A DNA stretch of 64,000 nucleotides from NCBI RefSeq assembly GCF_036588685.1, contig NC_086381.1, forward strand, positions 27,714,001 through 27,778,000, read 5' to 3'. Source of the stretch: Mytilus trossulus. Its lineage: Eukaryota. Below the pieces are notes generated by a model. That model did no database searches and had not been told where the DNA came from. It saw only the letters and a program-made list of their open reading frames with translations. How positions within the stretch are numbered: the first letter of the stretch is position 1; the number at the start of each line of letters is the position of its first letter. The position numbers and the translations under genes were made by a program. Positions 41,369 to 64,000 of the stretch are shown here, in pieces.

Positions 41369-41752
<384 letters not shown>

Positions 41753-41789
41753 TTAATACGTTGTTTGACTTGAACAAGTATAAACAATG

Positions 41790-41799
41790 ATTATCCAGT
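41790..41799 (+). repeat. Target site duplication, left copy (ATTATCCAGT)
   Basis: Identical to 49127-49136; single copy in empty units (e.g. 30600-30609). Confidence 0.95.
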
Positions 41800-41820
41800 C
41801 AACAAATGGAAGTTTTTAAC

Positions 41821-41853
41821 GACCTTGACTGGCTATACAGCCCTTGCACGGTC
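41821..41853 (-). other. Putative 3'-terminal RNA stem-loop of the LINE
   Basis: RNA GACC-G-UG-CAAG-GGCU-GUAU-AGCC-AGU-CA-A-GGUC, 21 nt from the 3' end; folded by eye. Confidence 0.55.
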
Positions 41854-42173
41854 GGCCCTGGCTTGCGCCTTTTTGGGCATTAAATAATTTATATTTTTAC
41901 CATGTGGTAATTTAAATAATTTAGAATAATAAGAAAGTTTAATAAAAACAAAAAATTTAAAAAGCAAAAATTTGGATAAATAAATGAATAAAAAAAAAAA
42001 AGTTTTAAGATTAGGTAAATAATAAAATAATAAAAAAATAATAAAAGAATATAAAAATAAATATAATAAAATAATATAGAAATAATTTTGTATAAAAATA
42101 AAAATAAAATAAAACAAAATAAATAAATAATTATTAAACACGGAGCCACCGGAAGTAGGAACAGGAGGAAAGC

Positions 42174-42236
42174 TTGGCCAAGCAAACAGCAGTGTACGGC
42201 AGCAACGTTGTCCTGGTACACCAGCAGCCAAGTAAA
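42174..42236 (+). pseudogene. Diverged fragment of the H2B 3' coding end inside the LINE 3'UTR (antisense to the LINE RNA)
   Basis: TTGGCCAAGCA...CAGTG...GTACACCAGCAGC(C)AAGTAAA is collinear with H2B 392-455; ~50/66 identical columns by hand alignment. Confidence 0.75.
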
Positions 42237-42874
42237 GAGCGGATAATTTTGATATGCCAAATTGTGTATGTGAATTTATATGCCAAATATTATGTATAAA
42301 CCACAATAAGCCTAAATTTGTGAATGTGAGTTTTGCAAAAATATTTAGTGGGATGTTTTGTATGTACTAGAAAAATGAAAAGTGAAATAAAATAAAATAA
42401 AATAAATAAAAAACCAAAGGGTGTATGTAAATTTTGACTGCTTTGTGCTAGCCTACCGTAGTTGCAGGACTTTAGAGTGCTAGTACACTGGAACACTTAT
42501 CCGCAGGAAGACAGTGCCCCACGCTAATTAAAACTGGATTAGCGCAAACCAGATCTTGCGAAGTACCATTTTTTAAGTCTTAGATTTGACTTGCGGCTTA
42601 ATGACATGAAAAATTTATATAATGACCAAAAGTAGAAACAAAAATAATTTAGGGTGCCGCGAATTTGGAAGAAAAAAACCAAAGGTTATCGTGCGTTCTT
42701 GTTTAGTTAGCATAATTCTAATAGTTTAATTAACTTATCCCTACATTCTTTTTATTTAATTCTAAATATGTTAAGTTATTTTAAATGATTAATTTTTATT
42801 ATTTTTTTTTAATTTTTTTTTTTTTTTAATCATATTTAATTTGGATTTTATTTGTCTTAAAGATTTAGTTTTTT

Positions 42875-43405
42875 ACTGCCGGTTATGGCCTGACTCCATT
42901 TCTGAGTCACTGACCGGATAACTCTTGCAGTATGTTTTGCCCCTTTAATGATGCTGTGGTAAGTCGTCTTGAAGATCCATCTGTACTGCCGGTTATGGCC
43001 TGACTCCATTTCTGAGTCACTGACCCCGGATAACTCTTGCAGAGTAGTTGGTCTTCTTAACGATCTTTTCTAGTAAGTACGTACTGTATTTGTATTGAAG
43101 ATTTGATTTTTACTGCCGGTTACGGCCTGACTCCATTTCTGAGTCACTGACCTGGATAACTCTTGCAGTGTGTTTTGCCTATTTAAAGATGTTGTGGTAA
43201 GTCGTCTTGAAGAGCCTTCTGTACTGCCGGTTATGGCCTGACTCCATTTCTGAGTCACTGACCCCGGATAACTCTTGCAGCGTAGCTGGTCTTCTTAACG
43301 ATCTTTTCTTTAGTACGTACTGTATTTGAAGTGAAGATTTAGTTTTTGACTGCCGGTTACGGCCTGACTCCATTTCTGAGTCACTGACCCGGATAACTCT
43401 TGCAG
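42875..43405. repeat. 3'UTR repeat array: five 56-58-bp cores with alternating spacers (A-B-A-B)
   Basis: Cores at 42875-42930, 42985-43042, 43112-43168, 43223-43280, 43349-43405; periods 110/127/111/126. Confidence 0.95.
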
Positions 43406-43454
43406 TGTATTTTAATTATTTTATTTCTATGACTGTTTTTTTATATATATATAC

Positions 43455-46400
43455 TTATATAAATTTATGATAATCAATTTCTGTTAAATATTGTACCAAG
43501 CACGACCAGACATATTGTTGTTTGTCTTTAGGAGGATCTAGTAATATTTTGGTATTAATATTTTGTATTTGAACCTTGTCCAAGTTTGATTGCAAATTTT
43601 GTCTCGCTTGTGAATGATTAATACAGTTTACTAGTACGTGTTCTATATCCTCTTTAATGCCGCATGTATTGCATATTGGTGAGACATTGCGTATGTACTG
43701 GCCTAGTTGCCCAGGTAATAAAGTAGTGCCCAACCTAAGTCTAGTTATTGTTTTTGCATGAAATCGATTACCTTGATAAAAGTTGGGTTTTTTATTTACT
43801 GCAGTATTTATAGAACGACTCCATATGGAGCATGTGTTATCCCATCTAGCTTGCCACTTTTTCTTATATAATGCTGTTGTTATTGCAATGAATTCGTTTG
43901 CACTAAGACTCAAGTTAAGGTCAATCTTATCATTACTTAGTGCTAATTTAGCTAGTTTGTCAACCTGTTCATTACCTAGGATACCAACATGCGCTGGTAT
44001 CCATTCTATGGTTACTTCTATATTTTTTTGTTTTAGACGACAAGCCAGTATTTGAATTGGTTCTAGGATATCGGGTCTACTTGATGCATTATTATTTATA
44101 GATTGGATTGCACTATATGAATCAGTTAGAATAACAACTTTTTGCCCTGGCTGTTGATTGGAGAATACCCACTTTAATGATTGATATATGGCCGTCATTT
44201 CTGTGGTGTACACGGAAAGATTGTCTGACGTTCGTTTATAGCTTGCAATCAACTTTGATGGGATTAGAAAAGCATATCCAGTTTTACCCGAAGCTGGGTC
44301 TTTTGAGCCATCGGTGTAAATTTTTAAATGATTTTTATATGCATTGTCGATGTACTCTAACGCTTTAGTCTTAATGATATGCGGATTTTCTTTTTTACTG
44401 AGGCTGTTTTTTATGTTACTGGATGTTTTTGCTTGACCTATTATCCATGGAGGTGGATCTTGAATATTTTTAGTAACCAACTTTATTTTGTCTAGTTCGT
44501 TATCTTTAAGTAGATTTTGGACTCTGAATCCGTAAGGTATGTTATGGTCATTCCATTTATGATTATAAATTTGATATTCAATACAGTCATCTACTAGTTC
44601 ATTGGCTGGATTTGATGGATTTTGTTTAGTACGAGCATAATATTTAAGAGAAAGGTGGTCCCTTCTTAATTGTAATGGCATTTCGCCAGACTCGGCTAGT
44701 ATTGTTTCTAACGGGGTCGATTTATGGGCCCCTAACACTATGCGAAGAGCTTTAGCTTGTATTATATCTAATTTAGATTTTACAGTTATAGATGCTGAAT
44801 TAAACGCTTGACATCCATAGTCAAGTACCGATCTAAGAAGAGATTTATATAGCATGAGAAGAGAATCAGTACCCATGCCATAATTATTTGCTTGAACATA
44901 CCTTAGAACGTTTAATATTGCTTTAGATCTTTCTAGTAAATAGTTTACGTGTTTATTCCATGTTAGCTTTCTATCAAATATGAGACCAAGAAACTTGACA
45001 TGATTCTGGAATTTGATTGGTTCGTTATCTAGCATTAGGTTAACTGAATAAACATGACGATCTCCAAATATTACTCCTATCGTTTTGGTTTTAGATATCT
45101 TAAAACCCCATTTTTTAGACCATGCACTTATATTATTAAGGGTTTCTTGCATTTTTTTTGTTAAGTGTTTAATATTTCCACCTCGGTACCACATTGCACT
45201 GTCGTCAGCAAATTGTGACATAACTGCGGGTTTTTTTGCCAGACCTACTAGATCATTAATCATGATGTTAAATAATGTGGGACTGATGACACTACCTTGC
45301 GGGATACCATTGTTTAGATCATATTCGTCTGAGGATTCTTGATTTACTTTAACTTGAATTTTTCTATCTTGCAGAAAGTCTTTTATGAAGTTAAATAATC
45401 TCCCATTTATACCGTAATCTTTGCACTTTTTTAATAGACCAAAACGCCATACTAAGTCAAATGCCTTTTCAATATCGAGAAATATGGCTAGTAGAAATTG
45501 TTTACGAACTTTAGCTTTTTTAATGTCTGTCTCAAGTCGCAGTAAGTGGTCTAATGTGGAGCGACCTTCACGGAACCCACTTTGTGTTTCATTTATTATA
45601 TTTTTCTCCGTTAGAAGATGTTTAAGTCTAACATTAACCATGCTTTCCATTAGTTTACAAAAATTTGATGTAAGAGAAATCGGTCTGTAGGATTTAGGGT
45701 CAGATTTATTTTTATTAGGTTTTAGTATAGGGATTACATTTGCATGTTTCCAGCTGTGGGGAAGTTGACCAGTTACCCACACTTTATTTATTAATTGTAA
45801 CATAATATCGATCATACTTTCAGGCATATGCTTGAACATTTCATATGTTATACGGTCATCACCGGGCGCAGTTGTCTTTTTGGTCTTAAGCACCTTATAA
45901 AGTTCGTTTTTGTTGAATGGTATATTAAATTTTGACCTATTATGTTGCTCATCATCATCCCTATTAATCGGATTTTCTATTTCGGTTTTTAATTTATGAG
46001 TTCTGAATTTGGGATCTAAGTTATTGTCACTGGATGCTTCTGCAAAAGTTCCGGCGAGCATGTTTGCTTTATCTACATTAGATACCGCTTGTTTGGTGTC
46101 ATTAATAAGTGTAGGTAGGGAGGATGATTTTGCCCCTTTAAGACCTTTAACTGTGTTCCAAACTGTTTTTACGTTAGTTTTATAGTTTAGTTTGTCACAG
46201 AAATTTTGCCAGTAGTCAGTTTTTGCCTTATCTGTGACACGTTTAAACTCCTTGACTGCAGTTTTATATAATTCATGATTTTCTTCTGATTTTGATTTAT
46301 CATATACCCTATGTTTATGACGCTTATTTTTTTTGGCATTCGTACAATTATCGTTCCACCAGGGACAGTTTTTTCTTGTATGTATAGTACCACTAGTTTT

Positions 46401-47273
46401 GGGGATTGTTTCATCTGCGATTTTAGTCACCACTTCACAAAGATTTTGATTAAAGATTTCAATATCGTCATGTTTTATATTATCTATATTTATTTCGTTA
46501 CAAAGGGTAGTGAACCTGTGCCAGTCGGCTTTATCGTACACCCACCTTTGTGGAGTGCAGACTTTATTTTTAACCGGTTTTGCATTTAACACGGTGAGTA
46601 CTGGGAAGTGATCAGAACCTAGTTGCTCATCTAAAACTGACCATTGACTGTCATTGGCTAACGATGCGGAGACTAATGTTAGATCTATTTGTGTTCGGTT
46701 GCCTGTTACAGTTTGATATGTTCCTGTACCGTCGTTTAAAATTATCATGTTATTTTGGTCTATGACTTTTTCAATTATGTTACCATTGCTATCTGTTGTG
46801 CTAGACCCCCACATCGAGGATCTACTATTAAAATCTCCAAGTAGCACTATATTATCTGATAAGTTATGCAAAACTTCTTGATATTCATCAAATTTAATAT
46901 TTTGACTAGGGGGTCTATACACATTAACTATATTTATCTTATTATTTTGACAGTTTACAGATACGCCTACTACTTCTATGTTATCAGTATTAAAATTAAG
47001 TTGTGAAAAATTAACTTGAATCGAAACATAAATTGCTACTCCTCCTCCTATTTGAGGTTTCTTTTTATTTTTACCTTTAGGTTGAATCGGTGTCTTTCTA
47101 TTTCGAATGATTGGTGGGTGGTAGCCTTGTAGTTTTATGTACCTATTATCTTTAAAACGAGTTTCTTGTACACAAATAATTTCTGGGTTATTATGTGTGT
47201 CTAAGTAATGTTTGAGGGAATTTGCGTTCGCATAAAGTGATCGCGCATTCCACTGTAAAATGTGTAGCCCCAT
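43455..47273 (-). CDS. LINE ORF2: APE endonuclease - reverse transcriptase - RNase H - C-terminal CCHC (1272 aa)
   Basis: APE: QWNARSL, CVQET, NVYRPP, GDFN, IDLTL, SDHFP; RT: YRPISLTS, QSGFR, LDIEKAFD, GIPQGSVISP, FADD, KFLG; RNase H: YTDGSK, TEMTAI, LTDS, WIPAHVGILGNEQVD; CNTC..H..C. Confidence 0.98.
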   Translation of the reverse strand: MGLHILQWNARSLYANANSLKHYLDTHNNPEIICVQETRFKDNRYIKLQGYHPPIIRNRKTPIQPKGKNKKKPQIGGGVAIYVSIQVNFSQLNFNTDNIEVVGVSVNCQNNKINIVNVYRPPSQNIKFDEYQEVLHNLSDNIVLLGDFNSRSSMWGSSTTDSNGNIIEKVIDQNNMIILNDGTGTYQTVTGNRTQIDLTLVSASLANDSQWSVLDEQLGSDHFPVLTVLNAKPVKNKVCTPQRWVYDKADWHRFTTLCNEINIDNIKHDDIEIFNQNLCEVVTKIADETIPKTSGTIHTRKNCPWWNDNCTNAKKNKRHKHRVYDKSKSEENHELYKTAVKEFKRVTDKAKTDYWQNFCDKLNYKTNVKTVWNTVKGLKGAKSSSLPTLINDTKQAVSNVDKANMLAGTFAEASSDNNLDPKFRTHKLKTEIENPINRDDDEQHNRSKFNIPFNKNELYKVLKTKKTTAPGDDRITYEMFKHMPESMIDIMLQLINKVWVTGQLPHSWKHANVIPILKPNKNKSDPKSYRPISLTSNFCKLMESMVNVRLKHLLTEKNIINETQSGFREGRSTLDHLLRLETDIKKAKVRKQFLLAIFLDIEKAFDLVWRFGLLKKCKDYGINGRLFNFIKDFLQDRKIQVKVNQESSDEYDLNNGIPQGSVISPTLFNIMINDLVGLAKKPAVMSQFADDSAMWYRGGNIKHLTKKMQETLNNISAWSKKWGFKISKTKTIGVIFGDRHVYSVNLMLDNEPIKFQNHVKFLGLIFDRKLTWNKHVNYLLERSKAILNVLRYVQANNYGMGTDSLLMLYKSLLRSVLDYGCQAFNSASITVKSKLDIIQAKALRIVLGAHKSTPLETILAESGEMPLQLRRDHLSLKYYARTKQNPSNPANELVDDCIEYQIYNHKWNDHNIPYGFRVQNLLKDNELDKIKLVTKNIQDPPPWIIGQAKTSSNIKNSLSKKENPHIIKTKALEYIDNAYKNHLKIYTDGSKDPASGKTGYAFLIPSKLIASYKRTSDNLSVYTTEMTAIYQSLKWVFSNQQPGQKVVILTDSYSAIQSINNNASSRPDILEPIQILACRLKQKNIEVTIEWIPAHVGILGNEQVDKLAKLALSNDKIDLNLSLSANEFIAITTALYKKKWQARWDNTCSIWSRSINTAVNKKPNFYQGNRFHAKTITRLRLGTTLLPGQLGQYIRNVSPICNTCGIKEDIEHVLVNCINHSQARQNLQSNLDKVQIQNINTKILLDPPKDKQQYVWSCLVQYLTEIDYHKFI

Positions 47274-47317
47274 TACGGTTAATTAATTATTTAAATTAAT
47301 TGTTGCTTATATTATCT

Positions 47318-48778
47318 TTAAATGACGTCAACTGTTATTTCTTTACCAAATTGCTCGCTGACAAATTTTTGAAAGAGTCTCATGATGGGAACAGAGATAT
47401 CCCCATGTTTGTCTGCTATATGCCGTATCTCTGTGATTAGGTTTTCCCAGTTTTTTAAATCACTAACGTCTTGACTTGATGGTTCAATTATAGTTTTGCG
47501 GATCTCTGAAATATTTTTTCTATCTTTATTAGGAATAATGGGGGTTTGATCTTCTATTTGTGTATTCTCTGTTTCAATATTTAAATTTTTATCTACGCTT
47601 ATTTCCGGATTATCTACCGGTGCCATAGTGGCTTCATTATCGCTAATTATATCCGTGTCATTGTTAATTACTTTAGATTTAACACTGTCAGCGTATGATT
47701 TACCAGGTGTGACATTTGATGTGCTAATTATTTTAGGTATGGTTTCATCATCTGACACTGGGGAGCTAATTATTTTAGGTATGGTTTCACATTTTTGTTG
47801 TGCCTTTTGTTTAGCTTGGTCAAATGACATTTTATGACTATACATATTTTCCAACACCTGTTTTTGGAATATATATTTGGGGCATGATTTATCTATTGCC
47901 TGATGTTTACCTCCACAGTTGTTACATTTTAAATTTTTTCCATTACAGTTTTTGGTTGCATGTTTACCAGCACATTTAATGCACGTATTAATAGATTTTC
48001 TGCATTGTTTGGCATAATGTCCTAGACTTGCGCATTTAGTACAGAATTTAGGGTTAGGTTTATATGGCAGTAAATCATACTCTATGTTTTGTCCCTGATT
48101 GTTTAAGGGAATAGATTTAAGAATTGAGTCTCTTTCTGATAACGTTACTAATAGATAACCAGCTTTACCTAATTGTTTTACAATTTTTATATCTGCCCCT
48201 GTTTGCCTTAGCATATTTTCCTGCTTTTTAATATTAAGAATTTCAGTATCAACAGGTTTAGGTATAACTTTATAGACTCTATTTTTAGTAACCTTATTTT
48301 CGTTAATTTCCTTTGTAGCAGCTGCTTGAATAGTTATTTTCTGCTTATGGTCAGTATCAAATTTAGACACTTTTATTTGGAAATTACCCAGTTTAGTCAG
48401 GCCTAGTAACTTTCTTTTTATGGTTTCAGATGGTGCGTAAACCAGCACACTGTTTTTAAGTGGTTTTATTTCTATAGCTTGATCATTAACACTTCCTATC
48501 ATGGTTATTAGCAGATAATGGAGAGAGTTAAGGGTCAGAAGCATGAACTTTTTTGCCCTTGATGTTATGATTAGTGTTTCACTAGGGGGAAACATTTTTT
48601 TGCCCTTATCATTGAGTGACACAGGGCTTTTATTTTTGGTTTGGCTTGATTCTTGCCTTTTTGGATATTGTATTGGCGAATTGCCTTGACTTTGTTTGTA
48701 AATTTTGGAATCAGGTGATTCCCCTTGTTGTGGACTTGTTGAGTCGATTTTCCTTTTGTTGTTTGTCATATTGTTCAT
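47318..48778 (-). CDS. LINE ORF1, gag-like nucleic-acid-binding protein (486 aa)
   Basis: Three knuckles CX2CX4HX4C, CX2CX3HX4C, CX2CX3HX6C; ends 44 bp upstream of ORF2. Confidence 0.95.
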   Translation of the reverse strand: MNNMTNNKRKIDSTSPQQGESPDSKIYKQSQGNSPIQYPKRQESSQTKNKSPVSLNDKGKKMFPPSETLIITSRAKKFMLLTLNSLHYLLITMIGSVNDQAIEIKPLKNSVLVYAPSETIKRKLLGLTKLGNFQIKVSKFDTDHKQKITIQAAATKEINENKVTKNRVYKVIPKPVDTEILNIKKQENMLRQTGADIKIVKQLGKAGYLLVTLSERDSILKSIPLNNQGQNIEYDLLPYKPNPKFCTKCASLGHYAKQCRKSINTCIKCAGKHATKNCNGKNLKCNNCGGKHQAIDKSCPKYIFQKQVLENMYSHKMSFDQAKQKAQQKCETIPKIISSPVSDDETIPKIISTSNVTPGKSYADSVKSKVINNDTDIISDNEATMAPVDNPEISVDKNLNIETENTQIEDQTPIIPNKDRKNISEIRKTIIEPSSQDVSDLKNWENLITEIRHIADKHGDISVPIMRLFQKFVSEQFGKEITVDVI

Positions 48779-49091
48779 ATTTAATATATCTTAACTTTTA
48801 ATTAAATTTATTAAAGCAAAAATAGATGAAACTTTAGCCAATTTAAATATTTAATACTTATTTAGCAAAAATATTAAATTATTTAAACTTATTTAGCAAA
48901 AACAAAGTTTAAAACCTAAAGATTAAAAAAAAATTAATTTATGAACTTACAAAGAAATAATAAAAAGAAGTGAAATTGAACTTAAGTAAAAAATAAAAAT
49001 AAAAATTATTTTAAATGCTAACTAAACAATTTAACAAAAAATAAACAACAGACCGTAATCTTCTCCTGTAATTGCTTTGAGATCGACGCGT

Positions 49092-49126
49092 ACGTGTTGA
49101 CTCGACGACGGCAAGCTAAGGAGTGA
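49092..49126 (-). promoter_or_regulatory. LINE internal Pol II promoter: Inr TCACTCC plus DPE ACACGT
   Basis: With A49124 as +1, G lies at +24 and ACACGT at +28..+33, matching DPE consensus DSWYVY at the canonical spacing. Confidence 0.65.
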
Positions 49127-49136
49127 ATTATCCAGT
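49127..49136 (+). repeat. Target site duplication, right copy (ATTATCCAGT)
   Basis: Identical to 41790-41799. Confidence 0.95.
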
Positions 49137-49151
49137 TAGGTGGTATTTTAC

Positions 49152-49159
49152 TATTTATA
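49152..49159 (-). promoter_or_regulatory. H2A TATA box now directly upstream of the LINE 5' end
   Basis: TATAAATA on the minus strand, starting 35 nt upstream of the LINE Inr A. Confidence 0.85.
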
Positions 49160-49367
49160 CCCGCAAAACGGATTGAAAGATGTTTCAGTTCTAAACCAAT
49201 CAAATCATCGCTTCTTCCAGGTAGTTAGGGTTGAATGTTAGAAGGGTGCTCTCTCCGAAGTTCGCGTTAAGTAAAAACTTTCAATCCGTTTAGCCGAGTA
49301 TAAATAGAAATTTTTATTAACGGCCATCATTCACTGATTACATTTCAGAGAGTATACATCTTTCAAA

Positions 49368-49742
49368 ATGCCACCAAAAGTTGGAACCAAAGGAGCCAAA
49401 AAGGCCGTAACAAAGGCAAAGACTGCCAGACCCGGCGGTGACAAGAAAAGGAGGAGGAAGAGGAGAGAATCCTATGCCATCTACATCTACAAAGTCTTGA
49501 GACAGGTTCACCCAGACACTGGAGTATCCTCAAAGGCTATGTCTATCATGAACAGTTTTGTCAACGATATCTTTGAGAGAATCGCTGCAGAAGCTTCCCG
49601 TCTCGCTCACTACAACAAGAGATCTACCATCACATCTCGGGAGATCCAGACTGCAGTTCGTCTGCTCTTACCCGGTGAATTGGCCAAGCACGCTGTCAGT
49701 GAAGGTACCAAAGCCGTCACAAAGTACACCAGCAGCAAGTAA
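49368..49742 (+). CDS. H2B: Histone H2B
   Basis: Canonical 124 aa. Confidence 0.99.
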
Positions 49743-59947: not shown

Positions 59948-60173
<226 letters not shown>

Positions 60174-60927
60174 ACAGCCAGCTGAAAAATACAAATACAA
60201 CGGCCCTTTTCAGGGCCACCAACATTTTTCAAAAAGAATCTGCATTTGTTGTACTTAAAAAGAAAACCATAGCTTTCTCCTGTCCAACTTTCTTTACTTT
60301 CCTTTTTCTTTTATTCGTTTATTTTTTTTAATTTCTTTTCACTATTTTTATTTAAGCCTATTAAAAAAAGACCAGCAAGGCTTTGGATACAATATGATTC
60401 CTGATTTTTGAATGTAAATAACATTTTTATTCTTTATTTCATATGTATTCTTTTATGTAAAAGATATATTGCTGATTTTTCCTCCATTGTCAAACTCTAG
60501 TTATATTGTTTTTATATCCTAAAACAATCCCCCTCCCCCTTTTTTCTCTCTGTCGACGTATGTGTGAATTTAATCTGTTCGTGATATTTTTTTATATAAT
60601 GTTTCAATACATATTCAAGTATAGTTCGATTCTAGACCCCCTCCCCCCCAAAAAAAGAGGGAAGAAATGTATAACCCGTGAAAAGGTTAAATTCTGGTGT
60701 ATGTATATTTTTTCAAATCGGCTAATAAAATGAAGAATAAAGAAGAGAAAAGAAGAAAGAAAGAAAGAAAGACAAAAAGACAGAATTCAGATATAAATAA
60801 ATTTGTCATTTTGGGGTGGGACACAGCTTCATTTAGAAGTTTGTTATGTACAACAATAATAAGACTCTTTTTGAAAAATATTGGTGGCCCTGAAAAGGGC
60901 CGTTTGTGAAGTTAAACTTCTCGTTGT

Positions 60928-61302
60928 TTACTTGCTGCTGGTGTACTTTGTGACGGCTTTGGTACCTTCACTGACAGCGTGCTTGGCCAATTCACCGGGT
61001 AGGAGCAGACGAACTGCAGTCTGGATCTCCCGAGATGTGATGGTAGATCTCTTGTTGTAGTGAGCGAGACGGGAAGCTTCTGCAGCGATTCTCTCAAAGA
61101 TATCGTTGACAAAACTGTTCATGATAGACATAGCCTTTGAGGATACTCCAGTGTCTGGGTGCACCTGTCTCAAGACTTTGTAGATGTAGATGGCATAGGA
61201 TTCTCTCCTCTTCCTCCTCCTTTTCTTGTCACCGCCGGGTCTGGCAGTCTTTGCCTTTGTTACGGCCTTTTTGGCTCCTTTGGTTCCAACTTTTGGTGGC
61301 AT
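60928..61302 (-). CDS. H2B: Histone H2B
   Basis: Canonical 124 aa from ATG at 61302. Confidence 0.98.
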
Positions 61303-61579
61303 TTTTGACAGATGTATACTCTCTGAAATGTAATCAGTGAATGATGGCCGTAAATAAAAATTTCTATTTATACTCGGCAAAACGGATTGAAAGTTTTTAC
61401 TTAACGCGAACTTCGGAGAGAGCACCTTCTAACATTCAACCTAACTACCTGGAAGAAGCGATGATTTGATTGGTTTAGAACTGAAACATCTTTCAATCCG
61501 TTTTGCGGGTATAAATAGTAAAATACCACCTAACGGGGTAATCATTGTTTATACTTGTTCAAGTCAAACAACGTATTAA

Positions 61580-61963
<384 letters not shown>

Positions 61964-62407
61964 AGTCAACACTACAGAAACTTCACTTACAACGGCCCTT
62001 TTCAGGGCCACCAACATTTTTCAAAAAGAATCTGACTTTGTTGTGCAATCTCAAACATAGCTCACTCCCTCCATTTCTCTTGTCTTTATCTCTTTATTTT
62101 TCCTTTTCTTTATAAACAGCATACAGATGTCTACTTTCTTATTATATATATAACAATATTTGATGTGGAAAAAAAATGAAGAACAGTACGAGTTTCTTTT
62201 TTTCCCCTATAAAAGTCCAAGAAAATAAACAACTATATATAAACGTAGATTCGATGAAAATGCGCAAGCACGAGAGGAAGAAAAACTCATAGTTGTTAGT
62301 GGTCAATATTGCATATATTTTTGGTGTAAATTTAGTTGCAGTCCTATATATTATACTATATAAGCACACACATTACAATCTATGACCTTATTTTTATATA
62401 ATATATA

Positions 62408-62463
62408 TTCGTTCGTTCGTTCGTTCGTTCGTTCGTTCGTTCGTTCGTTCGTTCGTTCGTTCG
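62408..62463 (+). repeat. (TTCG)14 microsatellite
   Basis: Only 3 copies at the same position in the standard unit. Confidence 0.95.
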
Positions 62464-63308
62464 TTGTCTGTCTAACTGTGATCTATGTGAATTCTTTTCT
62501 TCCTCTTCTGCTGTCACATTCTCTTAGATATATAATATATATTTTGTATTCCTATACAAAGTACTTATGCGTATGTTTATAGTTGTGTAGATTATTTTTT
62601 AGCTCAAATCCTTTGTATTTGCAAAATTCGTATATAAACAATAAAGAATACTTCAACAATGTGCAAGTTTCCCAGTATGCGTGCAGTATACTATATAGAG
62701 AATATCATGGCTTTACATGATACAGAGACTAGAGAATACAGACACTGTATAGCTAGAGAGAACACAAAGACTATAGAGAGGATAAAAAGTGTTCTCTTTG
62801 TTTTAAGACACTGAGACGAGTGACAATTGTGTACTATAGTAAGCATGTCTATACGAGAAACTGGCTACACACACTAAGAAAACGGCTGCATTTCTATACC
62901 ACTGGCTATTGATGAAAATGGATGGATGATGTTTTTTTTTCTCTTTTTCTTCTTCTATTTTGCTCTTTAATTTACATTTCCTGTCAATTATTAATTTCGT
63001 GTCAGACTGTTGATTAAACAATTATTTATTATTTGAATAAAGATTATTATTAAGTTCTGCATTACTCTTGATTATTATTTTTTTTGGTCTTATGTCAAAT
63101 TTTCGCTGACACTATCAGAATAGAAACAAATTGTGCCAATTGTTAGCTTGGGGTGAACAATCTTTAGCTTCAGTCCAAAAAGGGATCGAAAGCTGTGAAA
63201 GTAACTTCCAGATCAGTCCAATCATAATACAGAGATTTCAACCAATCAACGTGAGTTTTATTACCCCGAAAGGCCAATCAGTGTCGTGTTTGCAAACATT
63301 GCGGCTAG

Positions 63309-63794
<486 letters not shown>

Positions 63795-64000
63795 ACTGAC
63801 CTTTACTCTATACAATAACGGCCCTTTTAAGGGCCACCAATATTTTCCAAAAAGAGTCTGAATATGTTGTACATCAAAATCAAAAATAGCTGAAACCCCC
63901 TCTCCACATCTTTCTTTATTTTTCTTTCTCTCCACATCTCTCTTTATTCTTCTTTCTTATTATCTTTTTTTTTTGCACTTAAGATTAGACAAGTCAGGTT

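Follow-up and report, generated by a model that had tools for sequence, protein, structure and literature searches.

A group of related LINEs in this genome very often inserts in the sense orientation at a fixed distance from TATA boxes, so that the target-site duplication (TSD) begins 23 nt past the first T of the TATA box. This targeting rule is held with very high confidence from counts covering two LINE families (A and B) and a non-autonomous partner, with flank shuffles, other distances and the reverse complement serving as controls. The window, meaning the whole 64,000-nt stretch of DNA that was analysed, consists of tandemly repeated 5.6-kb units that carry the core-histone genes H2A, H2B, H3 and H4. 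One of these units is interrupted by a 7,327-nt insert on the minus strand, and its features are collected in Table 1.

On the minus strand, the H2A TATA box starts at 49159, ACTGGATAAT occupies 49136–49127, and the insert begins with TCACTCC at 49126. Its initiator-like (Inr) motif has its A at 49124, which puts this A 35 nt from the first T of the TATA box; it is followed by a G at +24 (49101) and ACACGT at +28 to +33 (49097–49092). Intact units instead run from ACTGGATAAT directly into CATTG, whose A is 34 nt from the first T. All of these letters and offsets agree with a preliminary description of the locus. A second ACTGGATAAT at 41799–41790 precedes CATTG and the H2A frame, and this repetition makes ACTGGATAAT a 10-bp TSD. 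The empty allele was found in contigs from two other DNA runs, out of four runs compared, which join 41789 to 49127 with the 10 letters shared; a third run has a promoter variant.

The preliminary description had read the junction as a LINE Inr plus downstream promoter element (DPE) that replaces the H2A initiator. TCACTCC is the element's own, being common to every copy with a 5′ end. Inr-like starts occur in families A, B and C, the two other families beginning with (T)CATTGG and TCATTCG. Since the proposed +1 A is preceded by TC in 5/5 copies, the transposing RNA would start at or before that T. The DPE consensus is RGWYV at +28 to +32, and the family A ACACGT departs from it by lacking the G at +29. 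Replacement of the initiator is doubtful: the native CATTG was moved 7.3 kb downstream and kept, and an A at offset 30 is retained in the TSD. Offsets of 34–35 are long for a start because the cap motifs of H2B and H4 lie 28–30 nt from the TATA start. Given these offsets, the A at 34 in the H2A motif TCATTG, and the placement of A30 within the TSD, the H2A start may well survive ahead of the element. The description correctly placed the LINE at the H2A start region, in sense orientation and with the upstream elements intact, so that the host promoter could read it. Contigs from one RNA run cover little of the element, and contigs cannot show start positions.

Table 1. Coordinates of features in the window and of one partner copy (C1); offsets are counted from the TATA start.
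Feature	Position	Strand	Remark
H2B gene	49299..49742	+	divergent; own TATA box; upstream region common with H2A
CCAAT-box	49196..49200	-	ATTGG on H2A sense strand; 41 nt upstream of TATA box
H2A TATA box TATAAATA	49152..49159	-	first T 23 nt before first TSD base
5′ TSD copy, 10 bp	49127..49136	-	offsets 23–32; candidate start A at offset 30
Inr-like start of the element, TCACTCC	49120..49126	-	common to all 5 copies with a 5′ end
DPE-like ACACGT, within the element	49092..49097	-	+28 to +33; one mismatch to consensus
LINE, I-group (Nimb-like), family A	41800..49126	-	full-length, 7,327 nt; both frames open
ORF1, 486 aa	47318..48778	-	three CCHC knuckles; two RRM-like folds (low-confidence model)
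ORF2, 1272 aa	43455..47273	-	AP-type endonuclease, reverse transcriptase, RNase H
Imperfect tandem repeats, 3′ UTR	42849..43421	-	without Rfam match
3′ stem-loop and TTG tail, 56-nt unit	41800..41855	-	
3′ TSD copy	41790..41799	-	
H2A cap-like motif TCATTG, native	41785..41790	-	displaced, now without TATA box
H2A coding sequence	41369..41746	-	separated from own promoter by insert
Variant H2A core promoter	61510..61543	+	pieces found at the 5′ ends of L450 and L456, two partner copies located on other contigs
Partner example L185	C1:4768357-4771381		further copies L424-L496

Judged from its sequence traits, the element is an I-group LINE, with a variable TSD, a 3′ tail of short repeats and 5′-truncated copies. 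It probably belongs to the Nimb clade, an assignment based on the range of its relatives. Its nearest protein relatives are from bivalves and fish, which agrees with the clade range given in the available text of PMC4758252, and the named matches to its proteins come from Mytilus (ORF1 up to 96%), which makes a mussel the likely host. The ORF2 domains correspond to PF14529/PF03372 (endonuclease), PF00078 (reverse transcriptase) and PF00075 (RNase H). In ORF1, the Cys and His residues of the knuckles are conserved and match known knuckles, and the tandem-RRM structural matches are those of a poor model (pLDDT 45). A domain search of ORF1 and ORF2 returned ordinary domains only and no additional DNA-binding domain.

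The first cue to targeting was a TATA box about 33 nt upstream of the 5′ junction in other copies. For family A, 163 3′ ends gave 124 unique junction pairs, 69 of which had a clear TSD; collapsing of copies, including seven multi-member clusters amplified in repeats, left 51 independent sites. TATAWA starts 20–26 nt before the TSD at 18 of these 51 sites, compared with about one in other upstream or downstream windows, and no mirror TATA signal was found in their 3′ flanks. Among the 42 held-out sites, which were unseen when the idea arose, TATAWA lies 31–35 nt before the TSD end in 13 (background 0.57), and TATAAA was counted in 9 against none for its reverse complement. With the window copy excluded, an exact TATAWAW is present 22–24 nt before the TSD at 15 of 50 sites (0.26 in 500 flank shuffles), rising to 24 of 50 within one mismatch (3.0 in shuffles). 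The other 26 have more than one mismatch there, so that about half of the family A sites are without a TATA-like motif.

The register was sharpened by a genome-wide search with 832 exact heads of the 3′ unit, in which TATAAA was found at the predicted spacing in 75 cases, at a control spacing 20 nt longer in 7, and as the reverse complement in 20. Forty of the 75 sites were taken in list order, skipping eight already examined and three repeats of one multicopy target; eight lacked a readable 3′ end and three a TSD, leaving 29 usable sites. The search pattern permitted about five TSD start positions, and the TSD starts exactly 23 nt after the first T of the TATA box in 22 of the 29. The TSD ends at 33–34 in 21 of 29, and the seventh TATA base is A or T in 27. 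The window copy, with its TSD at 23 and 33, follows the same register. The fusion at H2A is thus not the one-off event that it had been taken for, as its placement follows a family-wide rule that extends to H1 and to dozens of unrelated TATA boxes. That chance joined the LINE Inr and DPE to the TATA box of H2A, or that AT-rich DNA or amplified copies biased the counts, is very improbable as an explanation. Chance would account for the junction letters, and the seven clusters are a case of amplification; however, the sites had been collapsed to independent ones, the shuffles, other distances and reverse complement are near zero, and a second element lies at the same H2A base with the same TSD.

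The same placement was observed beyond family A. Family B, whose ORF2 is 34% identical to that of family A, provided 18 junctions, 13 with a TSD, and 12 sites, of which 5 have TATAAA in register against a background of 0.10. Family C provided 15 3′ ends and 5 5′ ends, and its agreement with +22–23 at three junctions (L177, L404, L423/L407) is anecdotal, as most of its junctions have no usable TSD. The partner is a non-autonomous element of about 600 nt, with an Inr/DPE-like head and the 3′ stem-loop of family A, the last 51 nt being 92% alike; 177 exact heads were found. Seventy partner copies were examined, 49 with a TSD, representing 41 sites; an exact TATA motif is in register at 10 of the 41 (0.29 expected) and one within one mismatch at 17 (2.8 expected). 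The absence of a tRNA head in 5/5 loci, the 3′ tail shared with a LINE and the TSDs are all as in LP-SINEs. The mollusc LP-SINEs are likewise non-autonomous with a LINE-type head instead of a tRNA head (PMC4758252); however, no target preference is reported for them and TATA is absent from the main text of that source.

Of 71 H2A promoters on the contig, two are interrupted at the same base. One is the window copy; the other, an independent event in a different H2A unit, is a partner-type stub of 34 nt that shares the TSD. A separate array that combines H1 with 5S genes has insertions at H1 and none at 5S. A single site in the H1 promoter was hit, 22–23 nt after the non-canonical slot GATAATTA, and it shows five kinds of 5′ junction (full-length family B, family B with a short deletion, two truncated family B copies and the partner) as well as a family A 3′ end. 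The several full-length family B copies in this array may stem from a single event that recombination then spread through the units. The unit of the H1 array is 2.34 kb and contains one histone H1 gene and two 5S rRNA genes (L165-L174, C1:4.76-5.08 Mb). In two copies in this array (L172:7480 and L185/L388), the 3′ end is at the promoter site and the 5′ flank is within the H1 coding region, which may reflect deletion, duplication or a template jump.

On the whole, insertions occur at the promoters of H2A and H1 and at TATA boxes dispersed elsewhere, not at Pol III genes, and a search for Rfam RNA genes at eight other target loci found none. No sequence preference between the TATA box and the cut was detected in the 29 sites. 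Initiator enrichment at offsets 28–34 was absent from dispersed TATA targets in sets of 19 and 29 sites, and an excess of upstream ATTGG (13/51 against 3) was not repeated in the second set (4/29 against 1–4). For these last two reasons, many of the target sites may not be working promoters.

The register is perhaps best explained by docking of the LINE ribonucleoprotein on TBP or on the Pol II preinitiation complex, which would set the insertion at +23. This reading, drawn by analogy, is modestly favoured because it would explain the precision, the orientation and the tolerance of poor TATA slots, and because TRE5-A offers a precedent. The ribonucleoprotein would contact TBP or the preinitiation complex at the TATA box through a protein tether, as between TRE5-A ORF1 and TBP. 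Under standard target-primed reverse transcription, the template strand would be nicked first, at offset 23, and the coding strand second, at 33–34. The duplicated 10–11 bp would cover the expected start (about offset 30) and keep the host start ahead of the element. The restored TATA-plus-TSD could then be re-targeted, building promoter-proximal stacks. Different elements stacked at one site with the TSD repeated between them were found at L035, L127, L436, L439 and L453, as expected if a restored TATA-plus-TSD is reused. Full-length copies at active promoters, chiefly in histone arrays, would be read from the host start just upstream of their own Inr, and their progeny would bear short 5′ tags of host origin.

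One alternative to docking is that a protein of the element itself recognises TATAWAW and cuts 23 nt away in the manner of sequence-specific LINEs, with no part played by transcription factors. Such direct readout is consistent with the single-base precision and with the dispersed targets, most of which look like TATA boxes standing alone in AT-rich DNA, where neither initiator nor CCAAT is in excess. It is nonetheless unlikely, given that the non-canonical H1 slot was hit repeatedly and that families A, B and C insert in the same register into a repeat that has a histone-type upstream box but no TATA. This evidence consists of four or five junctions, all in the one repeat, and for two of them no TSD was mapped; it agrees better with positioning by a host complex than with recognition of TATA by an element protein. 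The lack of any preference between TATA and cut, and of an extra DNA-binding domain, also speaks against direct readout. In sequence-specific LINEs of the R1, R2 and Tx1 type the target around the cut is conserved, unlike here, where TSDs and flanks vary and the upstream TATA alone is common.

A second alternative is passive cutting, in which the endonuclease or host nicking acts at the open complex with no protein contact, the TATA box setting the upstream edge and the TSD corresponding to the initial bubble. The initial bubble spans about -9 to +2, with which offsets 23–33 agree, and a mechanism of this kind would apply to TATA-less promoters. TSDs of 10–11 bp are unremarkable for the I group, however. 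Polymerase should moreover protect the bubble, and targets with no initiator signal may never open. While the bubble's upstream edge is described as set relative to TATA rather than to +1 (PMC5055313), as passive cutting would have it, this explanation too has a low probability.

Among the closest known systems to the docking proposed here is TRE5-A of Dictyostelium discoideum, for which binding of ORF1 by TBP in vitro, fixed orientation and tandem formation are reported (PMC5391098). It is likewise a non-LTR element with an AP endonuclease that inserts at a fixed distance and orientation to a transcription complex, forms tandems and has a non-autonomous partner. TRE5-A belongs to another LINE group, however, and inserts about 46–47 bp upstream of Pol III genes, facing the gene and leaving it intact, whereas the present elements insert across the start site of Pol II TATA promoters in sense orientation and sever the gene. 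Ty3 of Saccharomyces cerevisiae also integrates in a narrow window at start sites (PMC6673722; 10.1101/2021.07.27.453949), but is an LTR element that uses an integrase at Pol III genes. The fixed distance and orientation of TRE5/Ty3-type tethering are found here, but its Pol III targets are not.

Among systems associated with Pol II, the Drosophila I factor is of the same I group and has an internal promoter of the Inr and DPE type (PMC4748587). Its de novo insertions are moderately enriched in active promoters, but in a broad peak 100–200 bp upstream of the start with no strand preference, in data where breakpoints were unresolved (PMC10018349). Mu, P and Tf1 are also associated with Pol II initiation; they are not LINEs, their windows are at least tens of bases and a fixed single-base register is unreported in the portions of the source available (PMC7337890). 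HeT-A transcripts begin upstream of the element's 5′ end and thus outside it (PMC1636488), yet from a promoter in the adjacent telomeric copy and not in a host gene. Full-text searches, which had Repbase reports, subscription papers and supplements outside their scope, found no LINE that inserts at a constant spacing from the TATA boxes of Pol II promoters, nor is such targeting mentioned in the available parts of PMC9341512 and PMC11481361.

Base-precise, factor-guided targeting by retrotransposons is known for Pol III genes (TRE5-A and Ty3), where the genes are spared, and the Pol II promoter preferences reported to date are broad. Their counterpart for Pol II would be a LINE group with its cut 23 nt past TATA and with insertion in sense orientation, whose members would detach genes from their promoters while acquiring those promoters. 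How host factors aim a LINE endonuclease thereby becomes directly testable. The finding is also relevant to the gathering of these elements in histone arrays and to the transcription of promoter-poor partners.

The 5′ ends of partner copies provide some insight into the use of host promoters. Between TSD and head they have 0–31 nt, mostly chains of CATT, CAT, CAATC and CATATC units, and one family A copy has a similar chain. After removal of three mis-called tags, 2 of 31 tags of at least 9 nt have an 11-nt exact match to the H2A core promoter, at offsets 22–32 of the variant H2A and at offsets 30–40 of both H2A forms; the latter is what transcription from A30 would produce. In 600 trials, the observed matching was not attained under either of two nulls. 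A directed search identified a partner copy on another contig, with its own TSD, that has 31 nt of the variant H2A promoter (offsets 3–33) before its head, making three partner copies elsewhere with such pieces at their 5′ ends. To judge from these letters, H2A promoter DNA or RNA does enter progeny, and the tags suggest that histone promoters may launch progeny and that promoter-inserted copies may give heritable offspring. Read-in from upstream starts and template jumps are both possible origins. The tags may be template jumps because that of L493 extends past the insertion register and that of L456 would require a start within the TATA box. The ATAT letters at the 5′ end of the family B copy L198 agree with the H1 cap region, although they could be untemplated.

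In an unrooted reverse transcriptase tree, the midpoint split (99/96) separates family A from families B and C, with fish sequences beside B and C. A tentative extension, which is rather less probable than not, is that Nimb-like LINEs clade-wide dock on TBP or the preinitiation complex, insert in sense across the start, retain the start of the host within the TSD, launch from histone arrays in S phase or in the germline and in each generation carry a 5′ tag from the previous host promoter. The trait would then span bivalves to fishes, since A and B/C flank the deepest sampled split and the fish elements lie with the latter. If true, these elements would preserve, at base resolution, a fossil record of where TBP was bound, and would provide a natural enzyme for TATA-anchored gene insertion. 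A look across 80 metagenome and 31 viral loci returned few near-complete relatives, and both ends and a TSD could not be defined in the seven inspected.

The commonest insertion product of family A is the 56-nt unit alone (64 of 87 copies sampled by pattern). This unit begins precisely at the base of the 3′ stem-loop, and its family B equivalent is a 46-nt unit. Such short 3′ units may reflect a strong reverse transcriptase stop, an RNA cut or a minimal mobile unit. Self-propagation of the 56-nt stubs through their initial A is unsupported, as an extra A is found at other truncation points as well. The abundant 3′ end was also considered as a tRNA-SINE tail, an identity rejected when 15 of the 30 first matches proved to be one amplified 241-nt insertion in another repeat. 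The 3′ UTR repeats of the element are imperfect with a core of about 55 nt, look self-complementary and are kept in other copies. An Rfam search around the element identified histone stem-loops only, and the 3′ UTR repeats match no known RNA.

Several repeats have accumulated insertions. One hotspot (8 of 9 matches) is a non-coding repeat, present in many copies, that combines a histone-type upstream box with TATAAATA (L013, L054, L094, L137, L153, L495). At L022-L040, one 241-nt truncated copy lies 23 nt after a CCAAT/CATAAATA promoter-like site and was amplified inside a high-copy repeat; L089 is an independent insertion at a related site. Tandem arrays with a stub or partner copy in each unit are present at L108 (C1:76.57-76.65 Mb, periods of about 3.7 and 1.9 kb) and L496 (C14:43.26-43.29 Mb, 2.36-kb period), and no Rfam gene was found in either.

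The layout of the histone array is uncertain, as the window has three 100-N gaps and orientation switches. Single-frame TBP-like matches occur at L395, L396 and L398 besides the intron-bearing TBP gene. A second core-histone unit variant, about 96% identical, occupies 59948–64000 of the window and is also present at L384 and L385; it differs in sequence between the H2A TATA box and the cap.
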